A DNA stretch of 64,000 nucleotides from Chromatiales bacterium (GCA_026982555.1 JALSGT010000062.1:2610-66609); one strand, 5' to 3'; counted from the first letter of the stretch, positions 15,697 to 62,886 are shown. Notes: generated from the sequence alone by a model not told the origin. Numbers and translations are program-made.

Positions 15697-15724
15697 ATGT
15701 GAAGAAAAACCGCCGTCCTTTGAT

Positions 15725-37200: not shown

Positions 37201-37621
37201 CAAAACCGGGTGGAATACCGGCCTCCAGCGGGAAGCGTCGCAGGATATCCTGGCAAAAGGCATGGAAGGTGGTGGTTTTTACCTTGAAAGGCGAGCGCAA
37301 TAAATCTTCGTACAGTGTGGTGGCTCGTTTGAGTGTCACAGCATCAGCGGGCGCATCGATTTGCTGAAGTAAGGTTTTCAGCCCGGCAGGTGTACTCTGC
37401 GCCAGTTCCAGCAGGCGGGCATTGAGGCGGGTCTGCATTTCTGTGGCGGCCTTGCGGGTAAAAGTGACCGCAAGGATGCCGTCGGCCCGTGCGCCAGCAA
37501 GCAGTAAGCGAATCAGCCGGGTGACCAGCAACCAGGTTTTGCCAGTGCCTGCGGAGGCGTTAACAGTGGCGTTATGTTCGGGGTCGCAAGCGCGCAGGGG
37601 GTTGGCCATGGTGAGGCGCAT
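34202..37621 (-). CDS. UvrD/Rep-family helicase fused to a C-terminal RecB-type PD-(D/E)XK nuclease (AddA-like)
   Basis: Walker A ASAGTGKTW, motif II LLIDEFQDTNPTQW, C-terminal nuclease motif GIIDRLV ... WLVDYKTH. Length 1139 aa. Confidence 0.85.
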   Translation of the reverse strand: MRLTMANPLRACDPEHNATVNASAGTGKTWLLVTRLIRLLLAGARADGILAVTFTRKAATEMQTRLNARLLELAQSTPAGLKTLLQQIDAPADAVTLKRATTLYEDLLRSPFKVKTTTFHAFCQDILRRFPLEAGIPPGFELLESTAELKRAAWDALCADASRHPQSDNAQAIETLFESCNSLANTQTALNRFLEHRSDWWAFTESQADPLGFAMETLSTQLNVSATDKPETDFFNTATLTLLAEFVGLLQKHPGKKNAAALDALAIARDENEKPDRRFAQCCKAFLTASGTPLARKESKTQAKSMGDTGQQRFLELHHRICEQIAQTLNIRNAMDTLCRTGAWYQAGNALLAHYQQLKTEQRLLDFADLEWQAYQLLNHSDNVQWIQYKLDQRIDHLLIDEFQDTNPTQWRLILPLLEELAANETRHSRSVFLVGDNKQSIYRFRRADPELFVTAQNWLDTQLDAITQPLDTSWRSAEAIMTLVNRVFGEGPLHQQLMQFSTHATHHPQLWGHVEFLPLIAAADDETGSTDRTSGELCAPLRNPLQTPRLLKQDQRHLEEGRLVAKKIRHLIDNNTLTGTTDAARPLNYGDIIILLRHRTHAGDYEKALREADIPYIGANRGTLLQSLEVQDLVRLLSLLVTPFNNLGLASVLRSPLFDCSHEDLIALASHTDGQWIDRLTTIVALENRSSALQRAHMLLSRWRAQVDTLPVHDLLDRIYCEGDVLNRYHSAYPAHLQHRVAANLTRFIELALEIDSGRYPSIGRFVSRLHTLQQQEQDAPDEGSPLQAGSRVRLMTIHAAKGLEAPVVFLVDSTNVRNNSVAHQAIVDWPAQAPRPVSFLLTGTKEQQDTFTQNILDQHAKAETREDANLLYVAITRPKQFLFISGCQPRRGDALGWYGFLQAPFVETAEELSTTGWIFTSGQAATHITETTAVPEADTVPQHKIQPLILEKPKSNIAPSNISVSPAAPLTPHMADPDARTRGIAIHRMLQLLSEQATDIPQRVATELDLSTDDDHLITWFNSANTVFHSATFSHLFDPAQFINAHNEVPLHYTNEGQSVYGIIDRLVISKKCIWLVDYKTHHIDNTAKLDALAEHYQPQLNYYRIGIQRLWPTLPIKAGLLFTDMLAWKPLSLSVK

Positions 37622-38425
37622 ATTATCCTAACACGTTGGCCGCATCCACTCTCACCCACTGTTTCGGCGTTACTCTGATAATCCACTGATTAGCCGTATC
37701 TTCATAATTCCATGTGGTGCGCAAATAACCAAAGTGCAGAGTAAAGTAGTTTTTCAGAATATGTTGAATTTTCTATAAGGCGTCAGGCGGCGCATTTTTT
37801 ATTCAAAATAATTTGAAAAATACGTTGCCTTTTGCGCTGTTTATTCACTATTTCTGGTGGTAAATGGAGGTGCAACTGATTGAATGTTAGATATTTCAAT
37901 AAATGAAATGAAATCTCGGAAAATGATAATAAGAAAACGGTTTTGCATAACTTGATTTTGCTTCCGCTATAAGCAGTGGTAGTATTCGCAGTTATGTTGT
38001 AGTGCTGTGTCGTTTGGGAATGTTAGGCTGTGCCTGCCCGTTTAGTTTTCGCACCTGTTAGTTTGGTTTTTTGCGATTACCTAACGGTAGCGTACTTCAT
38101 ATCAAAATATCCCATAACTGATTTTAGTGAGAGCAGGTGATGGAAGAGGAAACAGCCGGGCAGGCACACGTTGGATTAAAAAGTTAGCTGCATAACACAT
38201 AAATAATAAGAAGTTGACTTTCGTTTGCTTAGGTTAGGAATAAAAGCGTCAATCATCAATTAGGGGAGGTGTTTATTCTTGGTTACAGTCATATTTAATT
38301 TTATTTAGGAACCGATTGTTTTGTCGGAGAGCTAAGCCGGGTTGAAGTCAAAGAAACTTTAATATTCTGGAACGTTAGCTTGATATTGTTTTTACGCAGG
38401 AGCACGCAGGAGAGTAGGTATAAGC
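37622..38425. promoter_or_regulatory. 804-bp AT-rich non-coding region upstream of the repeat lipoprotein gene and of addA (divergent)
   Basis: There is no ORF of 60 aa or more on either strand and the composition is strongly AT-rich. It contains the 15-mer ACGTTGCCTTTTGCG (37822-37836), which also occurs in all three MITE copies. I could not place a promoter with confidence. Confidence 0.4.
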
Positions 38426-40588
38426 ATGGATACAAGGAAAAAAATTATTATTGCGGGGATTTTAACGTCATCACTGGTGATCGCAGGCTGTAGCGATAAC
38501 GCATCCGACGATTCCTCTTCAAATTCAGAACCAGAACCAAAACCAGATGGTATTTACTCTCTTAACCTGACTGGAGGCCTGGGTGGTACCAATGGTGGGT
38601 CAGGTGGTGACGGTAACAATGTCAGCCTTTACAAGGCAGCAGGTACGGGAAGTGTCGAAGTGCTGGCCGACGGCGCCGCTGATGCCGGTTTTACCCGTAT
38701 TACCCCCGATGTCAACCTGGGGAGTAATCCGCTGGATATTACAACGGGTATTACCGTCGATGTTTTTGCGGAAGACGCGGATGAGCCCGCTGCGGGCACT
38801 CCCTATCTGATTGAGGATAACGGAAGACTGTTTGTATCGGACGGTAATACTGTTCTGGGTGACGAAGCCCCGGTAACGGGCATTAGCGTCGCCAGTGGCG
38901 TTACCTTGACCCTTGGTCTCAACGACACAACTTACGCCCGAATCAGTTTTGATAACGACGTGCTCAATTCCGGTGTCATAACCACGGCGGATATCGATGA
39001 GCTGCATCGTGGTGGTTTGCGCATTTATCCTGCATCGTATGTGGGACAGGCTGACAGCCGTATTGATACTGCCGGTACACAGGACAGTCAAAACGGTGGT
39101 GATGTGCTGATATCAGCTGATTATTCTGTATACAATCATGGCGCAGTTAACACAAGCGGATCAGATAGCGTCGATGACGATGCTGCTGCTGGCGGATATG
39201 TTGAACTCTATGCCGACTATCTCGTGCAAAACACCGGTGATATTGATAGCTCGGGTGGTGATGCCCCCAACGGTGAGGCAGGTCGTGGCGGGAATATTGA
39301 TCTGGCATCCGATTTTGGCAATATGTATAACAGCGGTCGTCTGGTCAATTATGGCGGTGATGGCCAGCTCGGCGGCGACGGCGGCCTGATTAATCTCTAT
39401 GCCGTTGGTGACATGCTGAACAGCGGTGATATCAATGCCCGGGGCGGTATCGGTGGCGCAGATGACGGCGGTAATGGTGCCAGCGTCGAGATGTACGCTT
39501 CCGGTCGCAAACTGGTGAACAGTGGTAACATTTTGGCCGCAGGTGGTAATACAACCGATGCTGATTCCGATGGTGGTGACGGTGGAGAGTTGTATGTTTA
39601 TGCAGAGTACGGCCCTGTTGACAGAGACGCACCCGCAGGTGGTCTTTTTGTTTCCGGCAATATTGATCTTTCCGGCGGCGACGCGGTAGCGACAGGTTAT
39701 GGTGACGGTGGTGTTGCCGGTTCCATTGATGTTCAGGTCTATGGCTCCAATTATCCTTCCGAAGTGGGCTTGGCCCTCCTGGGTTATACCGATATTGACA
39801 CCACAGGTGGTGATGCCAACTTTGGTGGTTCTGCCGGTGATGTGCTTATCTTCAACGATAGCGTGCAGGCCAATGCCGGTGTATACGTGCCGTCTGGCAA
39901 TGTCACCAACGAAGCCGACGTGACTGCTCGTGGCGGCAGTGTCGTGGCGGAGGCGGAAACAATACCGGCGGATGGTGGATCAGGTGGTAATTTCAGGCTG
40001 GAAACTGAAGATAAATATGGTTACATCAATCCTCAGCTGGAGATAACGACTAACAAAGGCAATATTGATGTGTCGGGTGGTAATGGTCTGGAATCAATGA
40101 TGAACGATATCAATCGTTCCGGCTCTGTCTGGCTTTGGGGTTACAACGGCGTCACCAATACCGGCAACATCACTGCAAATGGCGGCGCTGATCTGGGCAC
40201 CGACGGTGATGACACAGGCTACGGTGGTTATGCCAATGATATTGAAATGTATGCAGAGCTAGGCCAGGCCAGCAACAGCGGCAGCATTACGAATAATGGT
40301 GGTGCTGGTGAATACCGGGGTGGTCGTTCAGATGGTTTTAAACTGTATGGAATCACAGTCAGCAATAGTGGTGTGATCAGCTCGAATGGTGGTAATGCAG
40401 ATGCAAGTCTGGAGGGTTCTATCGGTGGCTCCGGTGGCTGGGTTGAGTTTTTCTCGCCGGGTGGTGTTGCCGGTGTGACTCATTCAGGCTCCGTAAGCCA
40501 CACTGCCGGTACGGGTGAAACCGCTAACGATGGTGGTGCCTTTATTCGCGGTGGCATGTGTGTCAGTGGTGATTGTAAGCCTCAGTAA
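38426..40588 (+). CDS. Gly/Asp-rich repeat lipoprotein (predicted surface or periplasmic beta-solenoid-like protein), unknown family
   Basis: Lipoprotein signal MDTRKKIIIAGILTSSLVIAG|C with Ser at +2, then an S/D/P-rich linker. Ten or more degenerate units of the form N(S/T)G-x-I-x3-GG-x(4-10)-GG-x-GG-x-(I/V)-x-(L/M)-Y-A follow. The C-terminus is CVSGDCKPQ. Confidence 0.7.
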   Translation: MDTRKKIIIAGILTSSLVIAGCSDNASDDSSSNSEPEPKPDGIYSLNLTGGLGGTNGGSGGDGNNVSLYKAAGTGSVEVLADGAADAGFTRITPDVNLGSNPLDITTGITVDVFAEDADEPAAGTPYLIEDNGRLFVSDGNTVLGDEAPVTGISVASGVTLTLGLNDTTYARISFDNDVLNSGVITTADIDELHRGGLRIYPASYVGQADSRIDTAGTQDSQNGGDVLISADYSVYNHGAVNTSGSDSVDDDAAAGGYVELYADYLVQNTGDIDSSGGDAPNGEAGRGGNIDLASDFGNMYNSGRLVNYGGDGQLGGDGGLINLYAVGDMLNSGDINARGGIGGADDGGNGASVEMYASGRKLVNSGNILAAGGNTTDADSDGGDGGELYVYAEYGPVDRDAPAGGLFVSGNIDLSGGDAVATGYGDGGVAGSIDVQVYGSNYPSEVGLALLGYTDIDTTGGDANFGGSAGDVLIFNDSVQANAGVYVPSGNVTNEADVTARGGSVVAEAETIPADGGSGGNFRLETEDKYGYINPQLEITTNKGNIDVSGGNGLESMMNDINRSGSVWLWGYNGVTNTGNITANGGADLGTDGDDTGYGGYANDIEMYAELGQASNSGSITNNGGAGEYRGGRSDGFKLYGITVSNSGVISSNGGNADASLEGSIGGSGGWVEFFSPGGVAGVTHSGSVSHTAGTGETANDGGAFIRGGMCVSGDCKPQ

Positions 40589-40610
40589 TCAGGTTTTGAA
40601 CGAGGTATCG

Positions 40611-40642
40611 GCGTGGCGGGATTTTCCCGCCACGCTTTTTTT
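40611..40642 (+). terminator. Rho-independent terminator after the lipoprotein gene
   Basis: gcgtggcggg-attttc-ccgccacgc (perfect 9-10 bp GC-rich stem) followed by T7, 23 nt after the stop. Confidence 0.85.
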
Positions 40643-40668
40643 AACTCTGAAATAATGGATGGTATGAA

Positions 40669-41430
40669 ATGGCTTCTTCTTACAGGCTGCTTTGCCAAAT
40701 ATTGTTTACCAGTATTGTTCTTTTTATGAGCAGCCAGCTTTGGGCTGAGTCACCTCATGTTTCTTATGATAAATCAACAGATACGATTTCTATCGTGGCA
40801 ACGGATGCATCGTACAAAGCAATAATGGCACGTATTGCGACGCTGAGCGGTGTTGAAATTCTTATGGACCCCAAAGCTGAACATAATATTACTATCGAGG
40901 TGAGTGATTTGCCTCTCGAAACGGCGCTGAAGCAACTGAGCCGTCAAACCAGTTTTGTGCTTATTCATGATATTCCTGAAACGGATGTGAATGAATCCCA
41001 GGAGAAATCAGTTCAGCCTGTACTGGTTCGTATGCGCATACTGCCGGAAGGTGAGTTTACTACGGATGCGATATACCCTGTTTTGGCCCCTGGGGGTGAA
41101 GCTTTTATTCGAGAAAAAAATCGTTACTTAGCACCTGCCCAGCAGGTTGACATTTTTAATCATGCCCAAAGGCGTTGGGAAGCCCGGCTGAAAGCAATGT
41201 CGCCGGAAAAACGGGAAAAACTTCTGGATATCGCACAAGAAAAACGTGAACAAATGGCCCAGAATCGTGCTGAACAGGCGCAAAGAAAAAAAGAACTTGC
41301 AGAAAAGCGCGAAGCTTATAAAAAACGACGTGATGCCCGGCTTGAGGAATTAAAATTAATGGACCCGGAACGATATGAACTCCGAATGAAACGGCGAATG
41401 GAAAGGCAGCAGGGCGTTAACAGCGAGTAA
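40669..41430 (+). CDS. Secreted protein with an STN/secretin-N-like module and a K/R/E-rich coiled-coil tail
   Basis: Sec signal MASSYRLLCQILFTSIVLFMSSQLWA|ES. ISIVATDASYKAIMARIATLSGVEILMDPKAEHNITIEVSDLPLETALKQLSR follows the STN pattern. C-terminal RRWEARLKAMSPEKREKLLDIAQEKREQMAQNRAEQAQRKKELAEKREAYKKRRDARLEEL. Confidence 0.6.
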   Translation: MASSYRLLCQILFTSIVLFMSSQLWAESPHVSYDKSTDTISIVATDASYKAIMARIATLSGVEILMDPKAEHNITIEVSDLPLETALKQLSRQTSFVLIHDIPETDVNESQEKSVQPVLVRMRILPEGEFTTDAIYPVLAPGGEAFIREKNRYLAPAQQVDIFNHAQRRWEARLKAMSPEKREKLLDIAQEKREQMAQNRAEQAQRKKELAEKREAYKKRRDARLEELKLMDPERYELRMKRRMERQQGVNSE

Positions 41431-41702
41431 AAATATCACTGACATCTGATCTGGCACGACGTTGTGAGCGCGATTATATTGAATCGGTTTTGGTGGAGCG
41501 GTGAGTGATTTTGTGCCATACAGCCGGGTCAGAATGAAATAAATTAAGTGGTATCACAAAAAAATAGTGGGTGACTTAACGCTGATAATAAGGCAGATTA
41601 CCCGTTTTGAGGGTAGTGTTTGGGCAAGGGAAGCGCCTAATATCGTTGTGCTGAGAAAATTATTTCCAGCTTTCCCTGAAATTAGCGACAAGGAAACACA
41701 AA

Positions 41703-42914
41703 ATGCCAGAAAATGATCGTCCGCCCTATATGCCAGATGTCGGTATCACGGCTGTTGTGCCTGATGAGTGGGGTGGTCCCTGGGAGTCTCGTCATCAGGT
41801 TTTAACCCGGCTGGCAAAGTATTTTAATGTTGTGTGGGTAAACCCCGTGGAATGGTGGAATGAATCATGGTTTGGGGCTCGCAGTGACAGATTTTTGTCT
41901 TCTCGAACTCAGGATTTACCGCATGGGTTTTCAGTTTTTGACAGAAGTTATTTTTTCCCCGGTTTTGGAAAGCCATGGATTGACTATGCCAGTGAATACA
42001 GCCGTCTTGCCATCGCAAGGAATACATTGCGAAAGCGAGGCAGCAAAGCGCACGTACTTTACCTTTGGAGAGATTCATTTTTCTCCGCGATGGATCGGGG
42101 AAGGTATGATGCAAGCTGTTATCACATTGATGACGAGTATACTTTTTCGGATGTTGATATTCCTAATTCCCCCAGAGAGGAAAACCTGATTAAAAGAGTT
42201 GATCAGGTTTTTATTTCTTCTCCTGCCCTGATGGCTAAAAAAGGGCATTTAAATTCACAGACTGCCCGCATTCCTAATGGGGTAAATGTTCGTGAATATA
42301 TCATCCCCAAGGATGAGCCCGAAGATATGGTGGGTATTCCCCACCCGCGAATCGGTTACGTTGGTATTATCAAACGGCAGTTGAATGTTGATTTGTTACT
42401 TGAAGTGGCAGTACGACACCCCGAATATTCTTTTGTGTTTGTTGGTCCAAAACGGCCTGACCTGCAAGATGATGGAAAAAAGTGGGAAAAGCTTGAGTCG
42501 CTTTCCAATACATATTTCGTTGGAGGAAAGCCGGTTTTTGAGCTTCCCGCCTATACGCAGCATATGGATGTTTGCATGTTGTGTTATACCCTTAACGACT
42601 ACACGAAGTATATCTATCCGTTAAAGCTGCATGAATACCTTGCTGCCGGCAAGCCTATTGTGGGTGTCCCGCTGGAGTCTTTAAAAGGGTTCGCTGAATA
42701 TATCCATTTTGCCGTTACCGTTGATGAATGGGAAGCTGGAATTCAGTTGGCTTTGAATGATGCGTCACGATCAGATGAAAGGGTGGAGGCACGAAAAAAT
42801 GTTGCGCGTGAGCATGACTGGGATGTGTTGACGTATAAAATTGCGCATAAAATCTGCGAACGTCTTGGCCCAGACTATGTAGCACGGTTACCGGAAGAAA
42901 CAAAAATAGAATAA
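41703..42914 (+). CDS. GT-B glycosyltransferase (distant paralogue of 15725..16915)
   Basis: It shares sequence blocks with the EPS-locus gene (see that feature) and lies between two secreted-protein genes. Confidence 0.7.
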   Translation: MPENDRPPYMPDVGITAVVPDEWGGPWESRHQVLTRLAKYFNVVWVNPVEWWNESWFGARSDRFLSSRTQDLPHGFSVFDRSYFFPGFGKPWIDYASEYSRLAIARNTLRKRGSKAHVLYLWRDSFFSAMDRGRYDASCYHIDDEYTFSDVDIPNSPREENLIKRVDQVFISSPALMAKKGHLNSQTARIPNGVNVREYIIPKDEPEDMVGIPHPRIGYVGIIKRQLNVDLLLEVAVRHPEYSFVFVGPKRPDLQDDGKKWEKLESLSNTYFVGGKPVFELPAYTQHMDVCMLCYTLNDYTKYIYPLKLHEYLAAGKPIVGVPLESLKGFAEYIHFAVTVDEWEAGIQLALNDASRSDERVEARKNVAREHDWDVLTYKIAHKICERLGPDYVARLPEETKIE

Positions 42915-43280
42915 TTGGAATCGCAAAAATTGCGAACCAATGAATACAATCCCTCCACAACATGCACGTTGTATTTGTGTACCTCTTGGCGAATTAATAT
43001 TTCGGGCCGTCGGTTTTTTTTACACCTTTCGCATGTTTGCCATGGATGACGGTCATAATTGGCTGAATTATAAGTAAAAAAAATAGATGGTACACAATGT
43101 GCTTGGAACCATAGCATTGCAGTATGTAATGGCAACGTTATATGCAGTCGGCGTTTTATGCTCCCATTGGTTCGGATGCTCAAGTAGGAGACAGGGAATT
43201 GTTTGGATGTTGGGCACCAGTTGGCTTTGAATCGGTGGGAAAGTTGTTTACGGATTTGAAGTGCTTACAGGTGATTTGTT

Positions 43281-46200
43281 ATGGTGGTAAGGCTAGATAG
43301 AAGTAGACTGTATTGCGGTGCGATTGTCGCACTGTTCTTATTGATCAGCGTGAGCACAGCACAGGCAATGTCATTTACATCAGATGATTTTAGTTCCTCT
43401 TCTCTGGACGCATCATTGTGGACCGTAGTTGATCCCCGTGGTGACAGTACACTCCAGTTAAACGGTACCCAGTTAACTATTTCCGTACCCGATGGCCTGA
43501 GCCATGATCTCTGGGAAACCGATCAGAATGCTGTTCGTGTTTTGCAGAATATTGACGATACCGATTTTGAGATTGAAATAAAGTTTGAATCGAACCTGAG
43601 CCAACGATTTCAGGTTCAGGGGTTATTTGTTGAGCAGGATGATCAAAATTTTCTGCGGTTCGATTTTTATTATGATGGTGCTGTTCTTCGTGTTTTTGCG
43701 GCGAGTTTCATTGCTGGAATCCCTACGATTCAACATGAGGCAATCATTACAAATGGCTCGCCGCTATACCTGCGCGTTCAACGGGCAGGGGACCAGTGGA
43801 CGCAGTTTTATTCCTATGATGGTACTAACTGGAATCAGGGCGCGGCATTTTCACACCCGTTGCTTGTCACAAGAGCTGGTCCCTTTGCGGGTAACGCTGG
43901 CAGCCCCGCTCCCGCGTTTACCGCAGTGGTTGATTATGCTTTCAATACCGCGTCCCCGATTATTTTTGAAGATGCAAACGATCCTCTCGATACTATGCCT
44001 CCGTCTATTTCAGATATTGCGATACAGGAAGGCCCGACGCGGGCCCGGGTAAGCTGGTCAACGGATGAGCCGACAATAGGGGCGGTTGAGTATGGCACAA
44101 CGGCCAGCTTTGAGCTTGGGCAGGTTGCCACCGTATCAGGCGGCCAGCAATTTGATGTTTTGCTCGATAATCTCTTACCGGACACAACTTACTATTTCCG
44201 GATTACATCGGAGGATGCCAATGGCAATACCCGGCAGTCAGAGGCATCGCAGTTTGTGACCGCAACTGATGCAGTGCCGCCTGGCCCTTTGATAGACGTA
44301 TGGTATGGTCCAAATCAGCGATTTGGGAATCTGGGTACGCCTCAGCGCTGGGTCAATATTGTGGGTAAAGTGACAGATCCAAATGGCGTGAAATCCCTGT
44401 CCTATCGCGTCAACGGTCAACCTGCCCGACAGCTTTCAATGGGGCCTGATGAAAATCGTTTACATTCTTTAGGCGATTTCAATGCTGAAATCAATGCAGT
44501 TGGGCCGGATGCCGAGTTGAATGTCGGTTTGAATACTGTTGAAATTACGGCGGTGGATAATCTCGATTATTCCACCGTTGAAGTTGTTACTGTGGAATTC
44601 AGCAATAATACTGTTTGGTCACTGCCATATGCTGTCGATTGGTCAAGTGTTACGCAGCCCTGGGATGCGGTTCAAATTGTCGATGGGCTTTGGGATATAC
44701 AAGGTTCTGAAGCCCGGCCTTTGGAACTGGGCTACGACAGGCTGATTGCCATTGGTGATATGTCCTGGACGGATTATGAAATTACCGTGCCGTTTACTGT
44801 GCATGGACTTGAGCCGGGTTATGTTTACGCTGGCCCCTCATTCAGTCCGGGAATCGGTGTTTTATTACGGTGGAGCGGACACTTTGACTGGAATGGCGCG
44901 CAACCTAATACGGGCTGGTGGTCATTTGGCGGGTTTGGGTGGTATCGCTGGAGACAGCCATCTGCGGGTGGTGAGCGTTTTCAAATCATGGGCAATGATG
45001 GCAGTATCATTGCGGATCGCGCTGAATCAAATTTCCCGTTCGGTGTTCCTCATGTTCTCAAGATGAGAGTAGAAACGCCGCCTAACGAAGGCAGCATATA
45101 CAGTCTCAAGATGTGGGAGCAGGCGCAACCTGAGCCGGCGGGATGGGATCTTGTCTCCCAGGAATTACCCACAGACCCTCAAAGCGGTTCACTGCTTCTG
45201 GTTGCACATCATGTTGACGCAACCTTTGGTAATGTCACGATTGTTCCCGCAGGAGATACGACAGGGCCCACGAACAGCAATATTCAGGTGACCAGCTCAG
45301 AAACAGTGGCGACCATTAGTTGGGTGACGAATGAGCCAGCAGCGGTGTCTCTGGCGTATGGTGTTACCAGTAATTATGAATTGGGAACGGTCTCCGACCC
45401 TGCTCTGAATACCAGCCACTCCGTCGAGCTTACCGGGTTAAGCTCTGCTACCGCCTACCAATTCCAGCTGACGGCGACGGATGAAACCGGGAACAGCAGC
45501 AGTTCCGTGAACAGGATTTTTGCCACTTCGGGCGTGATTCCACCTGGCCCGCAATCGGATTATTTTAATGCCGCGACACTGGATGCCCGCTGGACCACAG
45601 TAGACCCGCTGAATGATAACAATGTCACACTGACCGGCACCCAGGTTGCACTGAATATTGTTGGTGGCCCATCGCATGATGTGTGGGCCTCAGGCAACGA
45701 TACCTTGCGTTTGATGCAAGATGTCCTGGACCAGGATTTTATGGCGGAAGTGAAATTTGACTCTCTGCCAACTCAGCAGTATCAGATACAAGGGATACTG
45801 GTTGAGCAGGACAATGATAATTTCCTGCGCTTTGATTATTTTAGTGATGGAACAGACCTGCGGATATTTTCGGCCAGCTTTGTCAACGGGGTACCGACGG
45901 TGCGAGTGGACGATGTTGTATCATTAAGTGCGCCGATGTATCTGCGTGTAGTACGAGTGAGTGACACCTGGATATTGTTGTACAGCGGGGATGGCGTGAG
46001 CTGGACAGCGGCGGGAAGTTATATGCATAGCTTGCAGATGAATACCATGGGTATATTTGCTGGCAATGCACAGGCAGGTAATGCACCTGCCTATACTGCA
46101 CTGGTGGATTATTTTTTGACGGATGTTGAAGCACCGATTCCGGATACCACCCCGCCACTGATTGATAATATTGTGGTGGACAGTGCGGGTGAAGAAGCAA

Positions 46201-49200
46201 CACTGAGCTGGATAACGGATGAACCTGCTGACAGTCAGGTTATGTACGGCACGGCACCCGGGACGTATGAACTGGGTACCGTATCGAGCGCGACACTGAC
46301 ACAGAACCACAGTATTACCCTGACGGGACTGACTCTCGGCACTGTGTATTACTACCAGGTGAGTAGCAGTGATGCGGACAACAATACTGGTAGCAGCGTT
46401 GATCTTAATTTCCTTGCGGAAGATCTGACAGCACCGACAATCAGCGATGTTCAAATTGTGAGAGTGGATAGCAGTGCGACCATCAGTTGGGTCACCAATG
46501 AACCTGCCGACAGTATGCTCGACTATGGCGAGACCACTGCCTATGAGCTGGGTACGGTTTCGAGTGCTGCAGGTACCAGTCACTCTGTTGTGCTTAACGG
46601 ATTGACGCCAGGTGTCATGTATTATTTCCAGCTTACGGCGACCGATAGCAGCAATAACAGCGGCAGTTTATCGAATCAGGCATTTTTAATGTTTGGGCCA
46701 CAATCAGATGACTTTAATGCCGCAACACTGGATGCCCGCTGGATCACGGTAGACCCGCTGGGTGATAACAGTGTTGCATTGACGGGCAGTCAGCTTGAGT
46801 TGAATGTTACCGGCGGTCAGCCGCACGATGTGTGGACTTCGGGCAACGATGCCTTGCGTTTAATGCAAACAGTGGTAGATCAGGACTTTGTGGTGGAAGT
46901 AAAGTTTGATTCTCTGCCAACTCAGCGATATCAGATACAAGGCATTCTGGTTGAGCAGGACAATGGTAATTTCCTGCGTTTTGATTATCTGAGTGATGGC
47001 ACGGACCTGCGGATATTTTCGGCCAGTTTTGCCAATGGAGTGCCGACAGCGCAAATAAATAATATTGTGTCGTTGGGTGTACCTCTGTATTTACGTGTGG
47101 AACGAGTGAGTGATACCTGGACACTGTCTCACAGTGAGGATGGTGCGAACTGGACAGTGGCTGGAAGCTATGTACACAGTCTGCAAGTGAATACTATCGG
47201 TGTGTTTGCGGGTAACACTGGCGGGAGTGGTTCCCCGGCCTACACCGCACTGGTGGACTCTTTTGTGACGAATGCGGTGGTACCTGTCCCGGATACGACT
47301 GCGCCACTGATTGATAATGTTATGGTGGATCGTGCGGGTGAGGAAGCAACGTTGAGCTGGACAACGGATGAACCTGCTGACAGTCAGGTCATGTATGGCA
47401 CGGCACCGGGGACATATGAACTGGGTACCGTATCGAGTGCGGCGTTAACACAAAACCATAGCATTACCTTGACGGGGCTGATCCCCGGCACCGTGTATTA
47501 CTACCAGCTGAGCAGTCGTGATGCGAACAACAACACCGGCAGCAGTGCCGATCTTAATTTCCTGGCGGAAGACCTGGTGCCGCCGACGATCAGTGATGTT
47601 CAGGTTACGAGAGCTGACAGCAGTGCAACCATCAGCTGGATCACAAACGAACCCGCCAGTAGTGTGCTTGAGTATGGCGAGACTAATGCCTACGAGCTGG
47701 GCTCAGTTTCGAGTGGCAGCACAGGTACCAGTCACTCTGTTGTGCTGAGTGGGTTAACGTCTGATGTTATGTATTATTTCCAGCTCACGGCGACTGATGG
47801 CAACAATAATAGCAACAGTCTGTCGAATCAGACATTTATGATGTCCGGGGTACAATCGGATGACTTTAACACGACGATATTGGATTCCCGCTGGACCACG
47901 ATAGACCCGCTGGGCGATAACAGTGTTGCATTAACGGGCAGTCAGCTTGAGCTGAGTGTCGCGGGTGGTCAGCCGCATGATGTGTGGATCTCGGGCAACA
48001 ATGCTTTGCGTTTAATGCAAACCGTGGTGGACCAGGATTTTGTGGCGGAAGTGAAGTTTGATTCTCTGCCGACCCAGCGATATCAGATACAAGGCATTCT
48101 GGTTGAGCAGGACAATGGTAATTTCCTGCGCTTTGATTATATTAGTGACGGCACGGACCTGCGGATATTTTCGGCCAGCTTTGTTGATGGTGTACCTACG
48201 TCACGGGTTTACGATGTTGTGTCACCGGGTCTGCCACTGTATTTACGTGTGGAGCGGGTGGGGGACACCTGGACGCTGTCGTATAGCGGGGACGCTGTGA
48301 ACTGGACGATAGCTGTCAGTTATGTACACAGCCTGCAAGTGAATGCCATCGGCGTGTTTGCAGGTAACACCGGAGGGAGTGGTTCTCCTGCTTACACGGC
48401 ACTGGTGGATTATTTTCTTACGAATGCCACAGCCTTTGTTCTGGATACGATTCCACCAGTGATCGGCGATATTATGGTGGACAGTGTGGGCGAAGAAGCA
48501 ACACTGAGCTGGACAACGAATGAACCGGCAAACAGTCAGGTCATGTACGGCACGGCACCGGGGACATATGAACTGGGTACCGTATCAAGTGCGGCGTTAA
48601 CACAAAATCACAGCATTACCCTGACGGGACTGACCCCCGGTACCGTGTATTACTACCAGCTGAGCAGCAGTGATGCAGACAACAACACCGGTAGTAGTGC
48701 CGATCTTAATTTCCTTGTGGAAGACCTGACGGCACCGGTGATCAGTAATGTTCAAGTCGTGAGAACGGCGGCCAGTGTGACCATCAGCTGGGTCACCAAT
48801 GAATCCGCCAGTAGTGTGCTTGAGTATGGCGAGACTAATGCCTACGAGCTGGGCTCAGTTTCGAGTGGCAGCACAGGCACCAGTCACTCTGTTGTACTGA
48901 GTGGGCTAACGCCTGACGTTGTGTACTATTTACAGATCACGGCAACTGACAACAGCAATAACAGCAGTTTAGTGAATCAGACGTTTTTAATATCGGACTC
49001 ACAATCGGATGATTTTAACACCACAATATTGGATGCCCGCTGGACCGTGGTGGATCCGCTGGGTGATGGCAGTGTTGGTCTGACGGGCAGCCAGCTTGAA
49101 CTGAATGTCCCCGGTGGTCAGTCTCACGATGCATGGACCGCAGGTAACGATACATTACGTTTAATGCAAAATGTCGAGGACCAGGATTTTGTGGCGGAAG

Positions 49201-49589
49201 TGAAGTTTGACTCCCTGCCAACCCGGCGATATCAGATACAAGGCATTCTGGTTGAGCAGGATAATGGTAACTTCCTGCGTTTTGATTATATTAGTGACGG
49301 CACGAGCCTGCGGATATTTTCGGCCAGTTTTGTGGATGGAGTACCCACGTCACGGGTTTACGATGTTGTGTCGTTGGACGCACCGTTGTATCTGCGTGTG
49401 GAGCGGGTGGGTGATACCTGGACATTGTCGCACAGTGGGGATGGTGTGAGCTGGACGGTGGCCGTGAGTTATGTGCATAGCCTGCAGGTGAATGCCATTG
49501 GTGTATTTGCCGGTAACACATGGGGCGCTGGTTCACCTGCCCACACAGCACTGGTAGACTATTTTACGACGGATGCAGTTGCGCAGTAA
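43281..49589 (+). CDS. Giant secreted multidomain protein (2102 aa): 5 ConA-like lectin/glucanase-type modules, 1 divergent jelly-roll region and about 8 FN3-like modules
   Basis: Signal peptide ...IVALFLLISVSTAQA|MS. Recurring roughly 200-aa module SDDF..(L)D.RW..VDP.GD ... HD.W ... RL.Q ... DF..EVKFDS ... YQIQGILVEQD..NFLRFDY ... LRIFSA ... LYLRV.R.GD.W ... S.DG..W ... FAGN ... YTALVDYF. Recurring FN3-like module (A)TISWVTNEPA.S ... YG ... YELG.VSS ... HS(I/V).L.GL.P..VYY(Y/F)Q(L/V). No C-terminal PEP-CTERM, LPXTG or T9SS-like tag is visible. Confidence 0.85.
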   Translation: MVVRLDRSRLYCGAIVALFLLISVSTAQAMSFTSDDFSSSSLDASLWTVVDPRGDSTLQLNGTQLTISVPDGLSHDLWETDQNAVRVLQNIDDTDFEIEIKFESNLSQRFQVQGLFVEQDDQNFLRFDFYYDGAVLRVFAASFIAGIPTIQHEAIITNGSPLYLRVQRAGDQWTQFYSYDGTNWNQGAAFSHPLLVTRAGPFAGNAGSPAPAFTAVVDYAFNTASPIIFEDANDPLDTMPPSISDIAIQEGPTRARVSWSTDEPTIGAVEYGTTASFELGQVATVSGGQQFDVLLDNLLPDTTYYFRITSEDANGNTRQSEASQFVTATDAVPPGPLIDVWYGPNQRFGNLGTPQRWVNIVGKVTDPNGVKSLSYRVNGQPARQLSMGPDENRLHSLGDFNAEINAVGPDAELNVGLNTVEITAVDNLDYSTVEVVTVEFSNNTVWSLPYAVDWSSVTQPWDAVQIVDGLWDIQGSEARPLELGYDRLIAIGDMSWTDYEITVPFTVHGLEPGYVYAGPSFSPGIGVLLRWSGHFDWNGAQPNTGWWSFGGFGWYRWRQPSAGGERFQIMGNDGSIIADRAESNFPFGVPHVLKMRVETPPNEGSIYSLKMWEQAQPEPAGWDLVSQELPTDPQSGSLLLVAHHVDATFGNVTIVPAGDTTGPTNSNIQVTSSETVATISWVTNEPAAVSLAYGVTSNYELGTVSDPALNTSHSVELTGLSSATAYQFQLTATDETGNSSSSVNRIFATSGVIPPGPQSDYFNAATLDARWTTVDPLNDNNVTLTGTQVALNIVGGPSHDVWASGNDTLRLMQDVLDQDFMAEVKFDSLPTQQYQIQGILVEQDNDNFLRFDYFSDGTDLRIFSASFVNGVPTVRVDDVVSLSAPMYLRVVRVSDTWILLYSGDGVSWTAAGSYMHSLQMNTMGIFAGNAQAGNAPAYTALVDYFLTDVEAPIPDTTPPLIDNIVVDSAGEEATLSWITDEPADSQVMYGTAPGTYELGTVSSATLTQNHSITLTGLTLGTVYYYQVSSSDADNNTGSSVDLNFLAEDLTAPTISDVQIVRVDSSATISWVTNEPADSMLDYGETTAYELGTVSSAAGTSHSVVLNGLTPGVMYYFQLTATDSSNNSGSLSNQAFLMFGPQSDDFNAATLDARWITVDPLGDNSVALTGSQLELNVTGGQPHDVWTSGNDALRLMQTVVDQDFVVEVKFDSLPTQRYQIQGILVEQDNGNFLRFDYLSDGTDLRIFSASFANGVPTAQINNIVSLGVPLYLRVERVSDTWTLSHSEDGANWTVAGSYVHSLQVNTIGVFAGNTGGSGSPAYTALVDSFVTNAVVPVPDTTAPLIDNVMVDRAGEEATLSWTTDEPADSQVMYGTAPGTYELGTVSSAALTQNHSITLTGLIPGTVYYYQLSSRDANNNTGSSADLNFLAEDLVPPTISDVQVTRADSSATISWITNEPASSVLEYGETNAYELGSVSSGSTGTSHSVVLSGLTSDVMYYFQLTATDGNNNSNSLSNQTFMMSGVQSDDFNTTILDSRWTTIDPLGDNSVALTGSQLELSVAGGQPHDVWISGNNALRLMQTVVDQDFVAEVKFDSLPTQRYQIQGILVEQDNGNFLRFDYISDGTDLRIFSASFVDGVPTSRVYDVVSPGLPLYLRVERVGDTWTLSYSGDAVNWTIAVSYVHSLQVNAIGVFAGNTGGSGSPAYTALVDYFLTNATAFVLDTIPPVIGDIMVDSVGEEATLSWTTNEPANSQVMYGTAPGTYELGTVSSAALTQNHSITLTGLTPGTVYYYQLSSSDADNNTGSSADLNFLVEDLTAPVISNVQVVRTAASVTISWVTNESASSVLEYGETNAYELGSVSSGSTGTSHSVVLSGLTPDVVYYLQITATDNSNNSSLVNQTFLISDSQSDDFNTTILDARWTVVDPLGDGSVGLTGSQLELNVPGGQSHDAWTAGNDTLRLMQNVEDQDFVAEVKFDSLPTRRYQIQGILVEQDNGNFLRFDYISDGTSLRIFSASFVDGVPTSRVYDVVSLDAPLYLRVERVGDTWTLSHSGDGVSWTVAVSYVHSLQVNAIGVFAGNTWGAGSPAHTALVDYFTTDAVAQ
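45552..49589 (+). repeat. In-frame tandem DNA repeat, period 1149-1152 bp, about 3.5 copies, inside the giant gene
   Basis: Unit starts caatc(g/a)gat(t/g)a(t/c)tttaa at 45552, 46701, 47853 and 49002. Long stretches are near-identical between copies, for example 47670-47760 vs 48823-48913 and 46901-47040 vs 48060-48200, which differ at only scattered positions. Confidence 0.88.
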
Positions 49590-49670: not shown

Positions 49671-49704
49671 ACCCATGGCCATTAAGATATTAATGGCCAT
49701 GGGT
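49671..49704 (+). terminator. Hairpin terminator between the convergent giant gene and the GT2 gene
   Basis: Perfect 14-bp stem acccatggccatta / taatggccatgggt with a 6-nt loop, followed by a T-rich tract on the + strand. It lies 82 nt after the giant gene stop and 9 nt from the GT2 stop. Confidence 0.7.
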
Positions 49705-49712: not shown

Positions 49713-50639
49713 TTATTTGCGGGCTCGTTTGCGCCTTATTTCATTGACGAGTTCTTTCCATAATTCCTTCCGCAGCCAAAAAAGCTCTTTACCGACCGAT
49801 TTTAGTAAATCAAGCTTATGCTGAAAGGACAGCGGTGAACGAATAATGCTGGAAGCAATTTTTTGGAGACAGGTCCATGATTGCAACGAAATGCGGTTTT
49901 TGGTTGCCGGGTCGTAGAATTCCTGTTTACTTGCTGTTTCAGCTTCGGGCCATGAAAAAGATTGGTCATGGCGTCTCATTGATAGCAGGCAGTCAGGCAC
50001 CTCACAGAATTTGCCGAGCAGTATCAGTTCGATGAGCAGTGTCGTATCTGCACCAATGTAATTGCCGATCAAGCGCGTTTTTCGCAGAGCATCTGATTGA
50101 ATAAGACCGAATATATACGTTCCCTTCCATCCAGAGACACGCTTGCCTGAGCGCTGGAACATTTCCATTAATGCATGGTATCGCATGCGTGGATCATTTG
50201 AGGTCAGGCTCAGATAGTCATCCAGTACCAGACCTTTGATTGGTGTTCCCTGGTCGTCAATACCATCTCCCCTGGAAAACGCCAACACGGCTTCAGGATC
50301 ACTCCGGCCAGCTTTCAGGCAACTTTCCAGATACGTTGGCTCGCAAATATCATCAGCAGCTGCCCATTTGAAATAGTCTCCTGTTGCTAATGCAAATGTG
50401 TTGTTAAAATTCCATGCGGCACCCCGGTTATGGTCATAACGGTAGTATCGAATACGTTCATCATTAGTCGCGTATTTTTCACAGATTTCACCTGTGCGAT
50501 CTGTTGAGCCATTGTCAGATATGATGAGTTCAAAATCCGGGAAGGTTTGGCCTAGAATGGAGTCTATTGCTGCGCTGAGGAATTTTTCACCGTTGTAAAC
50601 GGGAATGCCGATACTGATTAGCGGTTTTTTTGTCATCAA
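49713..50639 (-). CDS. Family 2 glycosyltransferase
   Basis: ISIGIPVYNGEKFLSAAIDSILGQTFPDFELIISDNGSTD, a classic GT-A/GT2 N-terminus. Confidence 0.9.
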   Translation of the reverse strand: MMTKKPLISIGIPVYNGEKFLSAAIDSILGQTFPDFELIISDNGSTDRTGEICEKYATNDERIRYYRYDHNRGAAWNFNNTFALATGDYFKWAAADDICEPTYLESCLKAGRSDPEAVLAFSRGDGIDDQGTPIKGLVLDDYLSLTSNDPRMRYHALMEMFQRSGKRVSGWKGTYIFGLIQSDALRKTRLIGNYIGADTTLLIELILLGKFCEVPDCLLSMRRHDQSFSWPEAETASKQEFYDPATKNRISLQSWTCLQKIASSIIRSPLSFQHKLDLLKSVGKELFWLRKELWKELVNEIRRKRARK

Positions 50640-50673: not shown

Positions 50674-52158
50674 TTAGTTATTAGATTTTAGTTTTTCTTT
50701 TATAATATCAAAAAGTTTGATTTCCATGGAGGTTTCCGGATGTGTTGTACATATGCGCAGCAATAAAAAGAGACTGGCAAAATAGCTTGCGGCGCCAACA
50801 GCAGATAACGATATCAGTTTAATCAGGTGCGCCAGAATTGATGAAGTCTCACCCCATAGCGTCAGTGCAGATAAAACGATTGCGGCCATAAATAAAGAAG
50901 AAACAACAGGCCGCCACAGCAGGCTTATGACTTGTAACAGGTTGAGGTTCAGTTTGCGTGACAGGATGATGAAATTGATTGGCATCGACAGAAAAGCGAT
51001 TATGGCAATGGCCCAGGCTGCCATCAGGACGCCACTGGAGGCCAGTGCCCATATGATGGCAGGATAAATGAGGAAAACAGTAAATATTGATAAATAGGTA
51101 ATTATTTTAGGAATTCCCAATGCCAGGTATATTGCCCCCGTATTTGCTTGCAGCGCACGGAATATTCCTGTTATAGCAAGAGCCTGGATAAGGGGAATGC
51201 TATCTAACCACTTTTGTCCCAGAAAAACCTGAACAAGAGGGTCGGCCAAAAGAGCGATACCTGTGCCAATGGGTACGGTAAAAAGTGCAACCAGAGAGAA
51301 AACATCAAGAAAGCCTTTTCTCAACATCGCGATATCATTAGACATCTTGGCATATCCGGGAAATACCGCCCGGGTAACAGGGAATACCAGTTCAGATGTG
51401 GGAAGATTAGATATCTCATAGGATACGCTGTACATCCCAAGTGCTTGTGTTCCCGCCATTTTGCCGATAACAAAATCAATGCCGCGAATATTGACGAAAA
51501 TCAGAATATTGTTTATCAGCATCCACTTTGAAAAATGAAAAAGCTCCGAGGCTTTGGCAAGAGAAAAACGTGGTCGATAGGGGTGCATCATATAGCTTAT
51601 TATCAGGCCAACAAGCTTTGATGTGATGATGCCGGCAACAAGTGCCCAATAGTTTTTGAAGGTGAAGGCAAGGGATATGGTGACAAGGAAAGATACAATT
51701 TTTTGTATGAGCAGAAAATTAAACTCTTTCCTGAAGTTAAGTTCCTTACGAAATGCAACGATACCGATGTTTTCAAAACCCTGAATCAGTGTCGCCAGGG
51801 CAAGAAAGTGCATTATCCCTGCGAGATTCGGCTCCTCAAAGAAAGCCGCCGCCGGATTCGCAAGCAAGAAAAGGGCAGTAGCGGCAAAAATGGCGTACAA
51901 CACATTGAATGTCCATGCCGTATCGTAGTGCTGCCGGGAAGCCTTTTGGTTCTGGATCAGCGCAAGGTCAAAACTGAATGCGCCCATAATTTCCAGTGCG
52001 GCAAAAATGGCCATTGCGATGGCGACAAGCCCGAAATCCTCGGGTACAAGCAGGCGGGCCAGTATTACCGTACTAATCAGGCCAAGGCCACGCTGGGAAA
52101 ATTTAAAAAGCACCATCCACCCGGCACCCTTGGCCATTTTTTTATTTAAGTCCTCCAT
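50674..52158 (-). CDS. Wzx-like polysaccharide flippase (MOP/PST family, Polysacc_synt)
   Basis: KGAGWMVLFKFSQRGLGLISTVILARLLVPEDFGLVA N-terminus typical of PST flippases. About 14 TM helices, 494 aa. Confidence 0.8.
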   Translation of the reverse strand: MEDLNKKMAKGAGWMVLFKFSQRGLGLISTVILARLLVPEDFGLVAIAMAIFAALEIMGAFSFDLALIQNQKASRQHYDTAWTFNVLYAIFAATALFLLANPAAAFFEEPNLAGIMHFLALATLIQGFENIGIVAFRKELNFRKEFNFLLIQKIVSFLVTISLAFTFKNYWALVAGIITSKLVGLIISYMMHPYRPRFSLAKASELFHFSKWMLINNILIFVNIRGIDFVIGKMAGTQALGMYSVSYEISNLPTSELVFPVTRAVFPGYAKMSNDIAMLRKGFLDVFSLVALFTVPIGTGIALLADPLVQVFLGQKWLDSIPLIQALAITGIFRALQANTGAIYLALGIPKIITYLSIFTVFLIYPAIIWALASSGVLMAAWAIAIIAFLSMPINFIILSRKLNLNLLQVISLLWRPVVSSLFMAAIVLSALTLWGETSSILAHLIKLISLSAVGAASYFASLFLLLRICTTHPETSMEIKLFDIIKEKLKSNN

Positions 52159-52639: not shown

Positions 52640-52957
52640 TTAAATGACGGTCATGAATTACTGAATTGTGGTCATGAGTTACACAAGCGGTTGGAACGCA
52701 AATGAGAAAAGGCCGGCAAGGGAGAAAGTCGGGCTGGCTATGTTATCATTGCCCCCGAAAACGGGGTCCCACCCTGTGAAGAAATGGAGCCGATTTTAAG
52801 CTCCCGGCATATAGAGCTGCTGAGCATTCCACTGTTGGTGTAAGCCAAGGTAAGATGGCGACCTCCGGCTGTTGTTGTGTGGCGGAGCAGGGTATAAGGC
52901 CGTGCCGGAGTTGTGGGTGCATTGGATGACAGAAAACAAGATAACTTGGAGAATTAT

Positions 52958-53728
52958 ATGAAAGTAGCGTTTCTGGCAGGAGGATACGGTACTCGCCTGG
53001 CGGAGGAGACCGAAGTACGCCCGAAGCCGATGGTTGAGATTGGCGGGCATCCCATTCTTTGGCACATCATGATGCATTACCATCGCTATGGGTATAACGA
53101 ATTTGTTGTTGCACTGGGTTACAAGGGCGATTACATCAAGCGCTGGATGAAGGATTTTGCTTCATTAAACGGCCATTTGACGGTGAAAACAGCGACCGGC
53201 AAGGTGACTTCTCACGGTGCAAACAACCCGGACTGGACCGTGGATCTGGTGGATACCGGGTTAACCACACTCACCGGCGGACGTATCAAGCGCCTGCAAC
53301 CCTGGGTGGGGGAAGAGACGTTCATGCTGACCTGGGGAGATGGTGTTTCTGACGTGGACCTCGACAAACTGCTTGCATTCCACAAATCTCATGGCAAGTT
53401 GGCGACAATGACGGCGGTGCGTCCACCTGCACGTTACGGCCACCTGGAATTCGACGGCGACAAAATCATGAGCTTTACGGAAAAACCACAAACCAGCGAA
53501 GGCTGGATCAATGGTGCTTTTTTTGTACTGGAGCCGGGTATTTTTGATTATATTTCCGGTGACCAGATCATGTGGGAGGAGGAGCCGCTTGAGAATCTTG
53601 CAAAAGATGGTCAATTGATGGCCTATCGTCATGATTCTTTTTGGCAGTGCATGGATACATTGCGCGAAAAACATCTTTTGGAACGTTTGTGGCAGGCAGG
53701 GTCTCCGCCATGGAAAACATGGGAATAA
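52958..53728 (+). CDS. rfbF: Glucose-1-phosphate cytidylyltransferase
   Basis: MKVAFLAGGYGTRLAEETEVRPKPMVEIGGHPILWHIMMHY. 257 aa from the ATG at 52958, which has GGAG 6 nt upstream. The C-terminal WQCMDTLREK motif is typical of RfbF. Confidence 0.9.
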   Translation: MKVAFLAGGYGTRLAEETEVRPKPMVEIGGHPILWHIMMHYHRYGYNEFVVALGYKGDYIKRWMKDFASLNGHLTVKTATGKVTSHGANNPDWTVDLVDTGLTTLTGGRIKRLQPWVGEETFMLTWGDGVSDVDLDKLLAFHKSHGKLATMTAVRPPARYGHLEFDGDKIMSFTEKPQTSEGWINGAFFVLEPGIFDYISGDQIMWEEEPLENLAKDGQLMAYRHDSFWQCMDTLREKHLLERLWQAGSPPWKTWE

Positions 53729-53734
53729 TGTGAA

Positions 53735-54757: not shown

Positions 54758-54872
54758 TTCCTGATCAAGGAAAGACACTTTCAGGGTCGGCGTAAATTCA
54801 CGTCAACTGTACGGCCACGGCGTATTGCCCGGTGATGCCGTCACGAACACTTCAACAGGTGAAATTAAGGAT

Positions 54873-56102: not shown

Positions 56103-56197
56103 GCAGATATCGTTAAGTCATCACAATTGGCCTGAATATAGCCACTGTGATACAGCGCGAAAAATGTATAAAACACTATTTTAGAGATAGCAAAACG

Positions 56198-57385: not shown

Positions 57386-57413
57386 TGGCAATGTCAGCAG
57401 GAGAAGAATAGCA

Positions 57414-58616: not shown

Positions 58617-58619
58617 CCG

Positions 58620-61185: not shown

Positions 61186-61321
61186 TTAAATGCGAATATG
61201 ATGGGGCAATCATGTTCTGCTTGGTGTTTTCGGTCAACGTGTTTGTGAAATGGAGGTTGTTGTGAAAGAAAAAAAGGATGCTTTTGAAGGTGATCGTTTG
61301 GCATTCCGGTGCCCTTCGAGA

Positions 61322-62881: not shown

Positions 62882-62886
62882 ATGCG

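Follow-up and report, generated by a model that had tools for sequence, protein, structure and literature searches.

Two adjacent, probably independent units in a Chromatiales genome: a predicted solenoid lipoprotein-N0/STN gene pair and the left end of a polysaccharide island

We analyzed a 64,000-nucleotide stretch of the genome of a Chromatiales bacterium (GCA_026982555.1, JALSGT010000062.1:2610-66609; GC 0.489), referred to here as the window, in which four consecutive plus-strand open reading frames (ORFs) fill positions 38426-49589. They are, in order, P1 (38426-40588, 720 aa), P2 (40669-41430, 253 aa), P3 (41703-42914, 403 aa) and P4 (43281-49589, 2102 aa). A first-pass annotation, made from the sequence alone, had described these genes as one dedicated matrix or adhesin module. 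All four ORFs were confirmed, but the stretch is likely to consist of two independent units that are neighbors by chance. Unit A (38426-41430) is an autonomous, widely distributed bicistron that encodes the lipoprotein P1 and the secreted protein P2. Unit B, which runs from ~41587 to at least 59822, is a polysaccharide island specific to this lineage, and P3, a glycosyltransferase, and P4, a giant secreted protein, are its first two genes. Our confidence applies jointly to this division, to the roles proposed below for P1 and P2, and to P4 as a matrix scaffold. The P1-P2 pair is the undescribed part of the finding, and its function is one that we infer.

Comparison with related loci revealed where one unit ends and the other begins. 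In five loci at 74-76% P1/P2 identity (L006, L007, L012, L013 and L018), the response regulator gene, addA, the long intergenic spacer, P1 and P2 are kept, and P3, P4 and the downstream genes GT2 and Wzx are absent. In three of them (L006, L007 and L012), nucleotide homology to the window runs precisely to the P2 stop codon (41431) and no further. The gene that follows P2 encodes AddB in L006, L012 and L013 and a type II secretion system ATPase in L007. It is only in the closest relatives (86-97% P1 identity; L010, L011, L014, L015, L022 and L023) that P3 and P4 are found beside the pair. From the other side, two loci with a P3 that is 85% identical (L024 and L025) begin to match the window only at 41593 and 41587, respectively. 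A fragment of an IS4/5 (DUF4096) insertion sequence lies just upstream of P3 in L024 (203-616), and in L025 (1851-6018) a gene for an alginate-lyase and Ig protein (890 aa) and an rve-type insertion sequence stand between the 3' end of P2 and P3. The break in homology and these inserts identify 41432-41586 as the junction between the conserved block and the glycan island, and as an insertion hot spot.

The genes addA and addB normally form one operon. In L006 (5446-17128) and L012 (3122-14624), compared with window positions 34202-41430, the pair lies between addA and a gene for an AddB-like protein (993 aa, PDDEXK_1) and has the opposite orientation. The window lineage carries a further island of at least 20 kb at the same site, with AddB outside the window. 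Judged by gene order, the island is inserted where relatives have addB directly after P2, and the addB|addA junction looks like a hot spot for insertion.

Several points weigh against the two-unit explanation. All four genes stay together in the closest relatives, so a lineage-specific functional link is possible, and our terminator scan found no terminator-like site after P2, so transcription may read through from P2 into P3 in this lineage. Neither a Wzy polymerase nor a priming transferase was identified in the in-window part of the island, whose right end lies beyond the window. The location of P1 (cell surface or periplasmic face), an interaction between P1 and P2, and glycan binding by P4 are all predicted from sequence and structural models.

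The first two of these points, together with the adjacency of the genes on one strand, are also what favors the model of the first-pass annotation, a single surface module with P1 as the anchor, P4 as the lectin scaffold, P3 as the enzyme that glycosylates one of these two, and P2 as a helper. That annotation had itself named co-localization of the four genes in relatives as the check on its proposal, and we found that the co-localization does not extend beyond the closest relatives: every more distant context has P1-P2 without P3 or P4. The end of homology at the P2 stop codon, the inserts at the P2|P3 junction, and the membership of P3 in a family of general exopolysaccharide (EPS) glycosyltransferases without P4-like partners (below) all argue in the same direction. 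We consider the one-module model very improbable, as synteny largely refutes it. The lesson for annotation is that genes lying side by side near an EPS/exosortase region were taken for a four-gene system although they do not form one unit. Purifying selection acts on each of the four genes (dN/dS 0.08-0.23).

The two-unit explanation leaves P1-P2 as a system of its own, and the pair recurs widely. In eight independent genomic contexts, each P1 homolog of ~707-824 aa has a P2 homolog directly downstream, as judged from gene tables, HMM searches of six-frame ORFs and BLASTP (25-37% identity, E 2e-22 to 4e-48). These contexts include uncultured Gammaproteobacteria, metagenomic contigs of other lineages and Bermanella sp. 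R86510 (29% identity). The pair was also present in metagenome-assembled genomes (MAGs) labeled Nitrospirota and Deltaproteobacteria. A genome scan with the P2 alignment returned five loci only, all from close gammaproteobacterial MAGs, because its search patterns were too strict; the taxonomic breadth of the pair therefore rests on the metagenome matches. In one locus (L009), P2 is split by an insertion sequence. Distant P1-like genes without P2 also occur, namely a second paralog in L019 and a DUF7151-type gene in L020.

The two P1 paralogs of L019 (2708-15652) are 824 and 831 aa long, and a P2 homolog follows the first only. A gene with a CapK_C domain (453 aa), which resembles the CoA-ligase-like ORF of the window (12263-13618), lies between this P2 homolog and the second paralog, and a gene for a 1545-aa Calx-beta protein follows the second paralog. 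Comparison of the 393-, 429-, 444- and 453-aa neighbors revealed no third gene common to the contexts of the pair. A P3-like glycosyltransferase beside the pair elsewhere was considered and rejected: neither the glycosyltransferase gene that precedes P1 in L004 nor the 393-aa gene in L001 is related to P3.

Between P1 and P2 lies an intrinsic-terminator-like hairpin followed by a run of seven T residues (40610-40646, plus strand; hairpin 40610-40636). With its 12-bp stem and nine G-C pairs, it is the strongest terminator-like site in the scanned region. A GC-rich hairpin with a U-tract was present in the P1-P2 spacer of all nine loci inspected, and in distant lineages the stem sequences differ while the structure is kept. 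Eight of the nine spacers were tested against shuffled sequence and gave z-scores of -2.6 to -4.9. A terminator hairpin conserved at this position suggests that far more P1 than P2 is produced. Such an order of structural gene, hairpin and second gene is expected where a structural product is abundant and the accessory gene behind it is low-copy.

Upstream of P1, the 804-bp AT-rich non-coding region described in the first-pass annotation was confirmed (37622-38425; GC 0.384 against 0.489 for the window); it separates P1 from addA on the minus strand. Two blocks (37874-38073 and 38262-38425) are strongly conserved in the relatives at 74-76% P1/P2 identity, in which the spacer is ~1.15 kb long with an extra insert of ~330 bp. 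These conserved blocks suggest that the spacer is probably the promoter and a long 5' leader of P1. An Rfam search of the spacer and the intergenic gaps found no family that matches the spacer. One conserved block contains GGAGG followed by a nine-codon mini-ORF (TTG GTT ACA GTC ATA TTT AAT TTT ATT TAG, ~38267-38309), and an 11-bp duplication of ACGCAGGAG stands directly before the P1 start. A sigma-54-like sequence seen by eye in the leader (CTGGAAC...CTTGAT) was rejected, as it lacks the -12 GC and its spacing deviates by one.

P1 is an acidic, Gly/Asp/Asn-rich protein, and the earlier description of it as a 720-aa Gly/Asp-rich lipoprotein held up. Its signal peptide ends in a lipobox (LVIAG/C22), which is followed by a linker rich in Ser, Asp, Asn and Pro. 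The lipobox agrees with the signal peptidase II pattern for lipoproteins ([LVI][ASTVI][GAS]C), lipidation itself being predicted, and Cys22 is conserved in at least 90% of the P1 family (20 members). Gly, Asp and Asn make up 19%, 10% and 8% of the residues, and the protein has 97 Asp+Glu against 24 Lys+Arg (pI 4.05). AlphaFold2, run with a 20-sequence alignment, predicted an all-beta solenoid over residues 44-720 (pLDDT 91.6, pTM 0.89) and a disordered segment at 1-41. At least 11 copies of the repeat x-N-x-G-x-I-x3-GG-(x)n-GG-x-GG-x-I-x-L build the coils, and most family members share a C-terminal CxxxxxC pair.

We found at least 198 homologs of P1. The closer ones are mostly ~705-750 aa long and the distant ones reach 800-1000 aa; only about a quarter carry a name at the source, which is always 'hypothetical protein'. 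As the first-pass annotation had stated, P1 and P2 belong to no characterized family. Neither reaches any Pfam or NCBIfam family, and for P1 nothing was found in Pfam even at E<=1 across 20 family members. Foldseek searches with P1 against PDB and BFVD gave nothing significant (best PDB E 0.04, TM-score at most 0.25), the weak structural neighbors being beta-helical adhesins, tailspikes, Ag43 and calcium-dependent ice-binding proteins. A sequence-profile search of PDB with P1 returned no matches. P1 and P2 also had no match in PADLOC or PHROGs (nor P4 in PADLOC), and we rejected a defense or phage origin of the pair on this basis. The pair is not described in Pfam, NCBIfam, PADLOC, PHROGs, PDB or the literature that we searched.

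Two further identities were considered for P1 and rejected. An autotransporter or two-partner secretion (TPS) protein does not fit, as there is no Pfam or NCBIfam match, no barrel in the model and no transporter gene adjoining the pair. An RTX beta-roll does not fit either: no HemolysinCabind match was found (Pfam, E<=1, 20 members), and the repeat reads NxGxI...GG...GGxGGxIxL, not GGxGxDxUx. The C-termini of P1 (...CVSGDCKPQ), P2 (...RQQGVNSE) and P4 (...YFTTDAVAQ) were inspected for sorting signals; none has a PEP-CTERM motif or any other C-terminal sorting signal, and none matches an NCBIfam PEP-CTERM model at E<=0.01, in line with the earlier statement that the three secreted proteins lack such a signal.

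P2 has a cleavable-looking signal peptide (...LWA/ES) followed by a compact beta-alpha domain (residues ~30-125), and it ends in a 95-residue helix rich in Glu, Arg and Lys (27 Lys+Arg, 19 Asp+Glu). Between the two, in a region that is disordered in the model, lies an invariant motif, LAPxGEAFIREKNR (139-152). The top Foldseek matches of P2 are the N0 domains of XcpQ, GspD, PilQ and LspD (probability 0.90-0.96), with a TM-score of 0.64 to the GspD N0 domain (4jtm). The E-values are only 0.06-0.2, which are modest because the domain is short, and the model has a pLDDT of ~80-87 over the domain. In the model, the domain superimposes on the beta-alpha fold of secretin N0/STN domains. Weak sequence-level signals agree with this fold: 11 of 14 P2 family members match Pfam STN (PF07660) below threshold, with a best E of 5.6e-4, and P2 of the window scores 12 bits against a threshold of 28.4. 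The earlier call of a secreted protein with an STN-like module and a charged helix was thus supported at the level of the fold. Pfam detected no secretin domain or 22-strand barrel in this 253-aa, helix-ending protein.

A profile search without a word index yielded 781 P2-family representatives at E<=1e-3, and the best matches are mostly 230-290 aa long and aligned over the full length. The same profile also matches proteins of 848-1348 aa that carry four to seven tandem N0/STN-like domains (P0373, P0383, P0398 and P0411).

From these features we propose roles for both proteins. P1 would be exported by the Sec system, lipidated and tethered to the outer membrane, to which the Ser after the lipid-carrying Cys points. 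It would hang from a disordered linker of ~20 residues as an acidic beta-solenoid of ~680 residues. P2 would be periplasmic, with an N0/STN-type domain of the partner-docking kind and a Glu/Arg/Lys-rich helix ~13 nm long, and the hairpin between the genes would keep P1 in large excess. In that way, P1 could serve as an abundant structural lipoprotein of the envelope or surface, adhesin-like or cation-binding, and P2 could act as a low-copy accessory partner in its placement or anchoring, docking through the N0 domain or the invariant linear motif.

The same features may be read as a system that stays inside the envelope, with a periplasm-facing P1 as an acidic cation-buffering or spacing element and the long helix of P2 as a periplasmic strut. 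In none of the loci examined is a dedicated outer-membrane exporter (Slam, TpsB or autotransporter barrel) encoded nearby, N0/STN domains are periplasmic modules, and the strong acidity of P1 and the charged 95-residue helix of P2 would suit such a role. However, most of the proteins that weakly resemble P1 in structure are extracellular, namely adhesins, tailspikes and ice-binding proteins. P1 and P2 also evolve somewhat faster than AddA at comparable divergence (dN/dS 0.14-0.23 against 0.08-0.12), a mild and not decisive difference. We regard the envelope-internal reading as unlikely.

Going further than the preferred roles of structural lipoprotein and accessory partner, P1-P2 might be an unrecognized two-component envelope system present in several phyla, in which a dedicated, free-standing N0/STN protein of the periplasm serves to display or anchor an abundant solenoid lipoprotein whose fold class is new. 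This idea is speculative and, in our judgment, quite unlikely. If true, it would add a route or architecture of surface lipoprotein display distinct from Slam, autotransporters and two-partner secretion. The pair is a good target for study because of its compact and strict gene order, its conserved internal terminator, a confidently predicted solenoid without structural relatives, a free-standing N0/STN domain and the absence of Pfam and NCBIfam coverage. The Bermanella isolate that carries it may be tractable in culture, and working out the function of the pair could add a new envelope or surface protein system.

Turning to Unit B, the proper companions of P3 and P4 are the downstream GT2, Wzx and CDP-sugar genes, which lie outside the stretch singled out by the first-pass annotation; these neighbors mark P3 and P4 as the left end of a polysaccharide locus. 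P3 is a cytoplasmic GT-B glycosyltransferase, as had been claimed: it matches Glyco_trans_1_4 (PF13692) at 32.5 bits (cut-off 27) and Glycos_transf_1 at 30.1 bits (cut-off 26.4). Its best NCBIfam match is TuaH (NF047676; 114.7 bits, E 4.4e-33), below the equivalog cut-off of 550. There are at least 1904 homologs, hundreds of them at ~50% identity, and one that is 49% identical immediately follows the priming transferase in an XrtA/EpsH-EpsI EPS locus.

We examined the neighbors of P3-family genes in 80 metagenomic loci. GT2 genes were found in 25, AsnB-type amidotransferase genes in 14 and sugar-1-phosphate nucleotidyltransferase genes in 9, with epimerase, Wzx, O-ligase-like, XrtA and C-methyltransferase genes also nearby. 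A P4-like neighbor was present in the closest four loci only and absent from the other 76. The earlier proposal that P3 is the glycosylating enzyme of a surface module does not agree with this distribution, which points to an ordinary EPS glycosyltransferase and not to a dedicated protein-glycosylating partner of P4. P3 would work with the GT2 enzyme, the Wzx flippase and the CDP-sugar and C-methyltransferase genes.

P4 has orthologs only in close relatives (P3 at least 85% identical), and its description as a secreted 2102-aa protein of ConA-like and FN3 modules was borne out by Pfam, which detects five of the former and eight of the latter. A signal peptide is followed by a ConA-like module, an FN3 module, a region at 331-655, another FN3 module, and then 3.5 tandem units of ConA-like, FN3 and FN3 modules. 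GH43_C2 (146.3 bits, cut-off 22.7) and DUF1349 (138.1 bits, cut-off 32.4) each match five stretches. The FN3-type modules score above gathering thresholds as Pur_ac_phosph_N (206.3 bits, eight stretches) and fn3 (91.2 bits). The tandem units occupy the C-terminal two thirds (758-2102), are 383-384 aa long and are 73-84% identical to one another at the protein level. Tandem Repeats Finder reported nothing for P4, the repeat period of ~1150 bp being beyond its limit. The Rfam search also gave a hit to the RpsF leader in the P3-P4 gap (43009-43089); it stays below the gathering score (20.5 bits against 37, E 0.87) and is most likely due to chance.

This domain content, compared with known matrix proteins, suggests that P4 is probably a polysaccharide-binding matrix scaffold. 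It would be secreted, bind the polysaccharide of the island at many sites and cross-link the matrix. As for the earlier idea of a matrix module, a lectin scaffold is still reasonable for P4 alone, and the anchor lipoprotein and glycosylating enzyme fall away as its partners. P4 might instead process polysaccharide or be a receptor-binding adhesin, with the activity located in the ~325 residues at 331-655, for which we found no family match save a faint Ig hit and no solved structure by sequence. GH43_C2-type modules accompany glycoside hydrolases elsewhere, according to the Pfam family description, which would fit an enzyme. However, searches of Pfam, NCBIfam and PDB sequences identified no catalytic domain in P4, and tandem binding-type modules are typical of multivalent binders; an enzyme or receptor-binding adhesin is decidedly unlikely. 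We retain the scaffold as the preferred role.

Downstream of P4, a palindromic hairpin with a 15-bp stem followed by a T-rich stretch (49671-49704) is a likely bidirectional terminator between P4 and the convergent GT2 glycosyltransferase gene (49713-50639, minus strand; Pfam and NCBIfam). A Wzx/MOP flippase gene follows (50674-52158, minus strand; 266.8 bits on Polysacc_synt_3), and GT2 and Wzx also adjoin P3-P4 in three of the closest relatives (L010, L011 and L022). The sugar-nucleotide operon (52913-59822, plus strand) encodes an RfbF-type glucose-1-phosphate cytidylyltransferase, an SDR epimerase/dehydratase, three sugar C-methyltransferases and an FAD oxidoreductase. The three C-methyltransferases (Methyltransf_14) are paralogous and follow the cytidylyltransferase in a row, and the FAD enzyme, at 308 bits, passes the NCBIfam cut-off of 299 bits for L-2-hydroxyglutarate oxidase. 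This trio and the FAD enzyme point to an unusual methylated or branched CDP-sugar. A possible GT1-like ORF (59849-60928) has a sub-threshold Pfam hit and a glycosyltransferase-like look. Of the components of a Wzx/Wzy-dependent polysaccharide locus, the in-window part of the island (41.6-59.8 kb) offers the flippase, P3, GT2, the possible GT1-like ORF and the CDP-sugar genes, while a search of it for a Wzy polymerase and a priming transferase identified neither. Further to the right are a trypsin-like protease gene (61250-62077), an acyl-carrier-protein-like ORF with an LDSMA motif (62216-62467) and, seen by eye, a possible PilZ-like ORF that runs off the end of the window (within 62216-64000).

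The first-pass annotation had placed the four genes next to an exosortase system. The XrtA/PEP-CTERM locus is real and carries stp1, XrtA-EpsI, stp2, an amidotransferase gene, stp3 and the gene for the putative O-glycosylation ligase that had been claimed (PEP_O_lig_1, 17005-18342). The adjacency is loose, as ~9 kb of unrelated genes separate it from P1, among them those for a PDZ-domain protein, an ABC-class ATPase, an MFS transporter, a response regulator and the AddA helicase. The distant paralog of P3 noted there was also recovered (15680-16915; 31% identity, 2e-50). It is full-length and overlaps the end of a heparinase II/III-like gene (676 aa; both within 13666-16915), and a lyase-like gene with a TuaH-like glycosyltransferase may be a recurring module of EPS loci. 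Between the amidotransferase gene and stp3, the locus is broken by a dcm-type DNA cytosine-5 methyltransferase gene (7378-8658) and an unassigned 343-aa ORF (8663-9694), which may be an inserted restriction-modification pair.

We compared the proteins of both units with known systems. In pilin and fimbrial operons, the gene for the major structural subunit is followed by an attenuating terminator and then by accessory genes. P1-P2 is similar in having a conserved strong intrinsic terminator right after the structural-looking P1 and before the small, accessory-like P2. However, P1 and P2 have no homology to pilins, ushers or chaperones, and partial read-through is a prediction.

P1 is modeled as a long beta-helix of short, Gly/Asn-containing repeats, one coil each, in the manner of beta-solenoid surface proteins such as autotransporter passengers (Ag43 and the chlamydial Pmps), the TpsA adhesins and MpIBP. 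In the Pmps, each GGA(I,L,V)/FxxN repeat forms one coil of the beta-helix (PMC11166332). MpIBP is a calcium-dependent ice-binding beta-helix, and together with the Ag43, Pmp and TpsA class it provides the only, weak, structural neighbors of P1. In contrast to these proteins, P1 is a lipoprotein without a beta-barrel or TPS domain and without a nearby gene for a partner transporter; TM-scores to P1 are at most 0.25, and its repeat is not the RTX nonapeptide. The N-terminal domain of P2 is predicted to share its fold with secretin N0 domains and with the STN domains of TonB-dependent transducers and FecR-type anti-sigma factors, in which it mediates periplasmic protein-protein docking. P2 differs from all of these as a free 25-kDa protein without a secretin barrel, TonB-dependent barrel or anti-sigma module; it falls below the Pfam STN threshold and has its own invariant LAPxGEAFIREKNR motif and long charged helix. 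The pair thus resembles both beta-solenoid surface proteins and N0-mediated docking and is a member of neither class.

P3 resembles the TuaH-type GT-B enzymes of EPS/XrtA loci in its Glyco_trans_1_4 domain, its best match and its 31%-identical paralog in the XrtA locus; its TuaH score is far below the equivalog cut-off (114.7 against 550 bits), and the likeness is one of sequence family, not of donor, acceptor or product. For P4 and its surroundings, the closest comparison is the rbm cluster of Vibrio cholerae (RbmA, RbmC/Bap1), which lies between the vps polysaccharide gene clusters. Like RbmA (tandem FN3) and RbmC/Bap1 (lectin domains), P4 is secreted, combines FN3 and lectin-type modules and has its gene within an exopolysaccharide locus. 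RbmA binds VPS directly and organizes the matrix (PMC5605196). There is no sequence relationship between these proteins and P4, which has ConA-like DUF1349/GH43_C2 modules instead of beta-prism or beta-propeller lectins, is ten times the size of RbmA, shows 3.5 recent tandem duplications, and has predicted binding only. The content of the island is typical of glycan loci, making it a new member of a familiar kind and a further case in which a putative lectin/FN3 matrix protein shares a locus with the genes for what is presumably its cognate polysaccharide.

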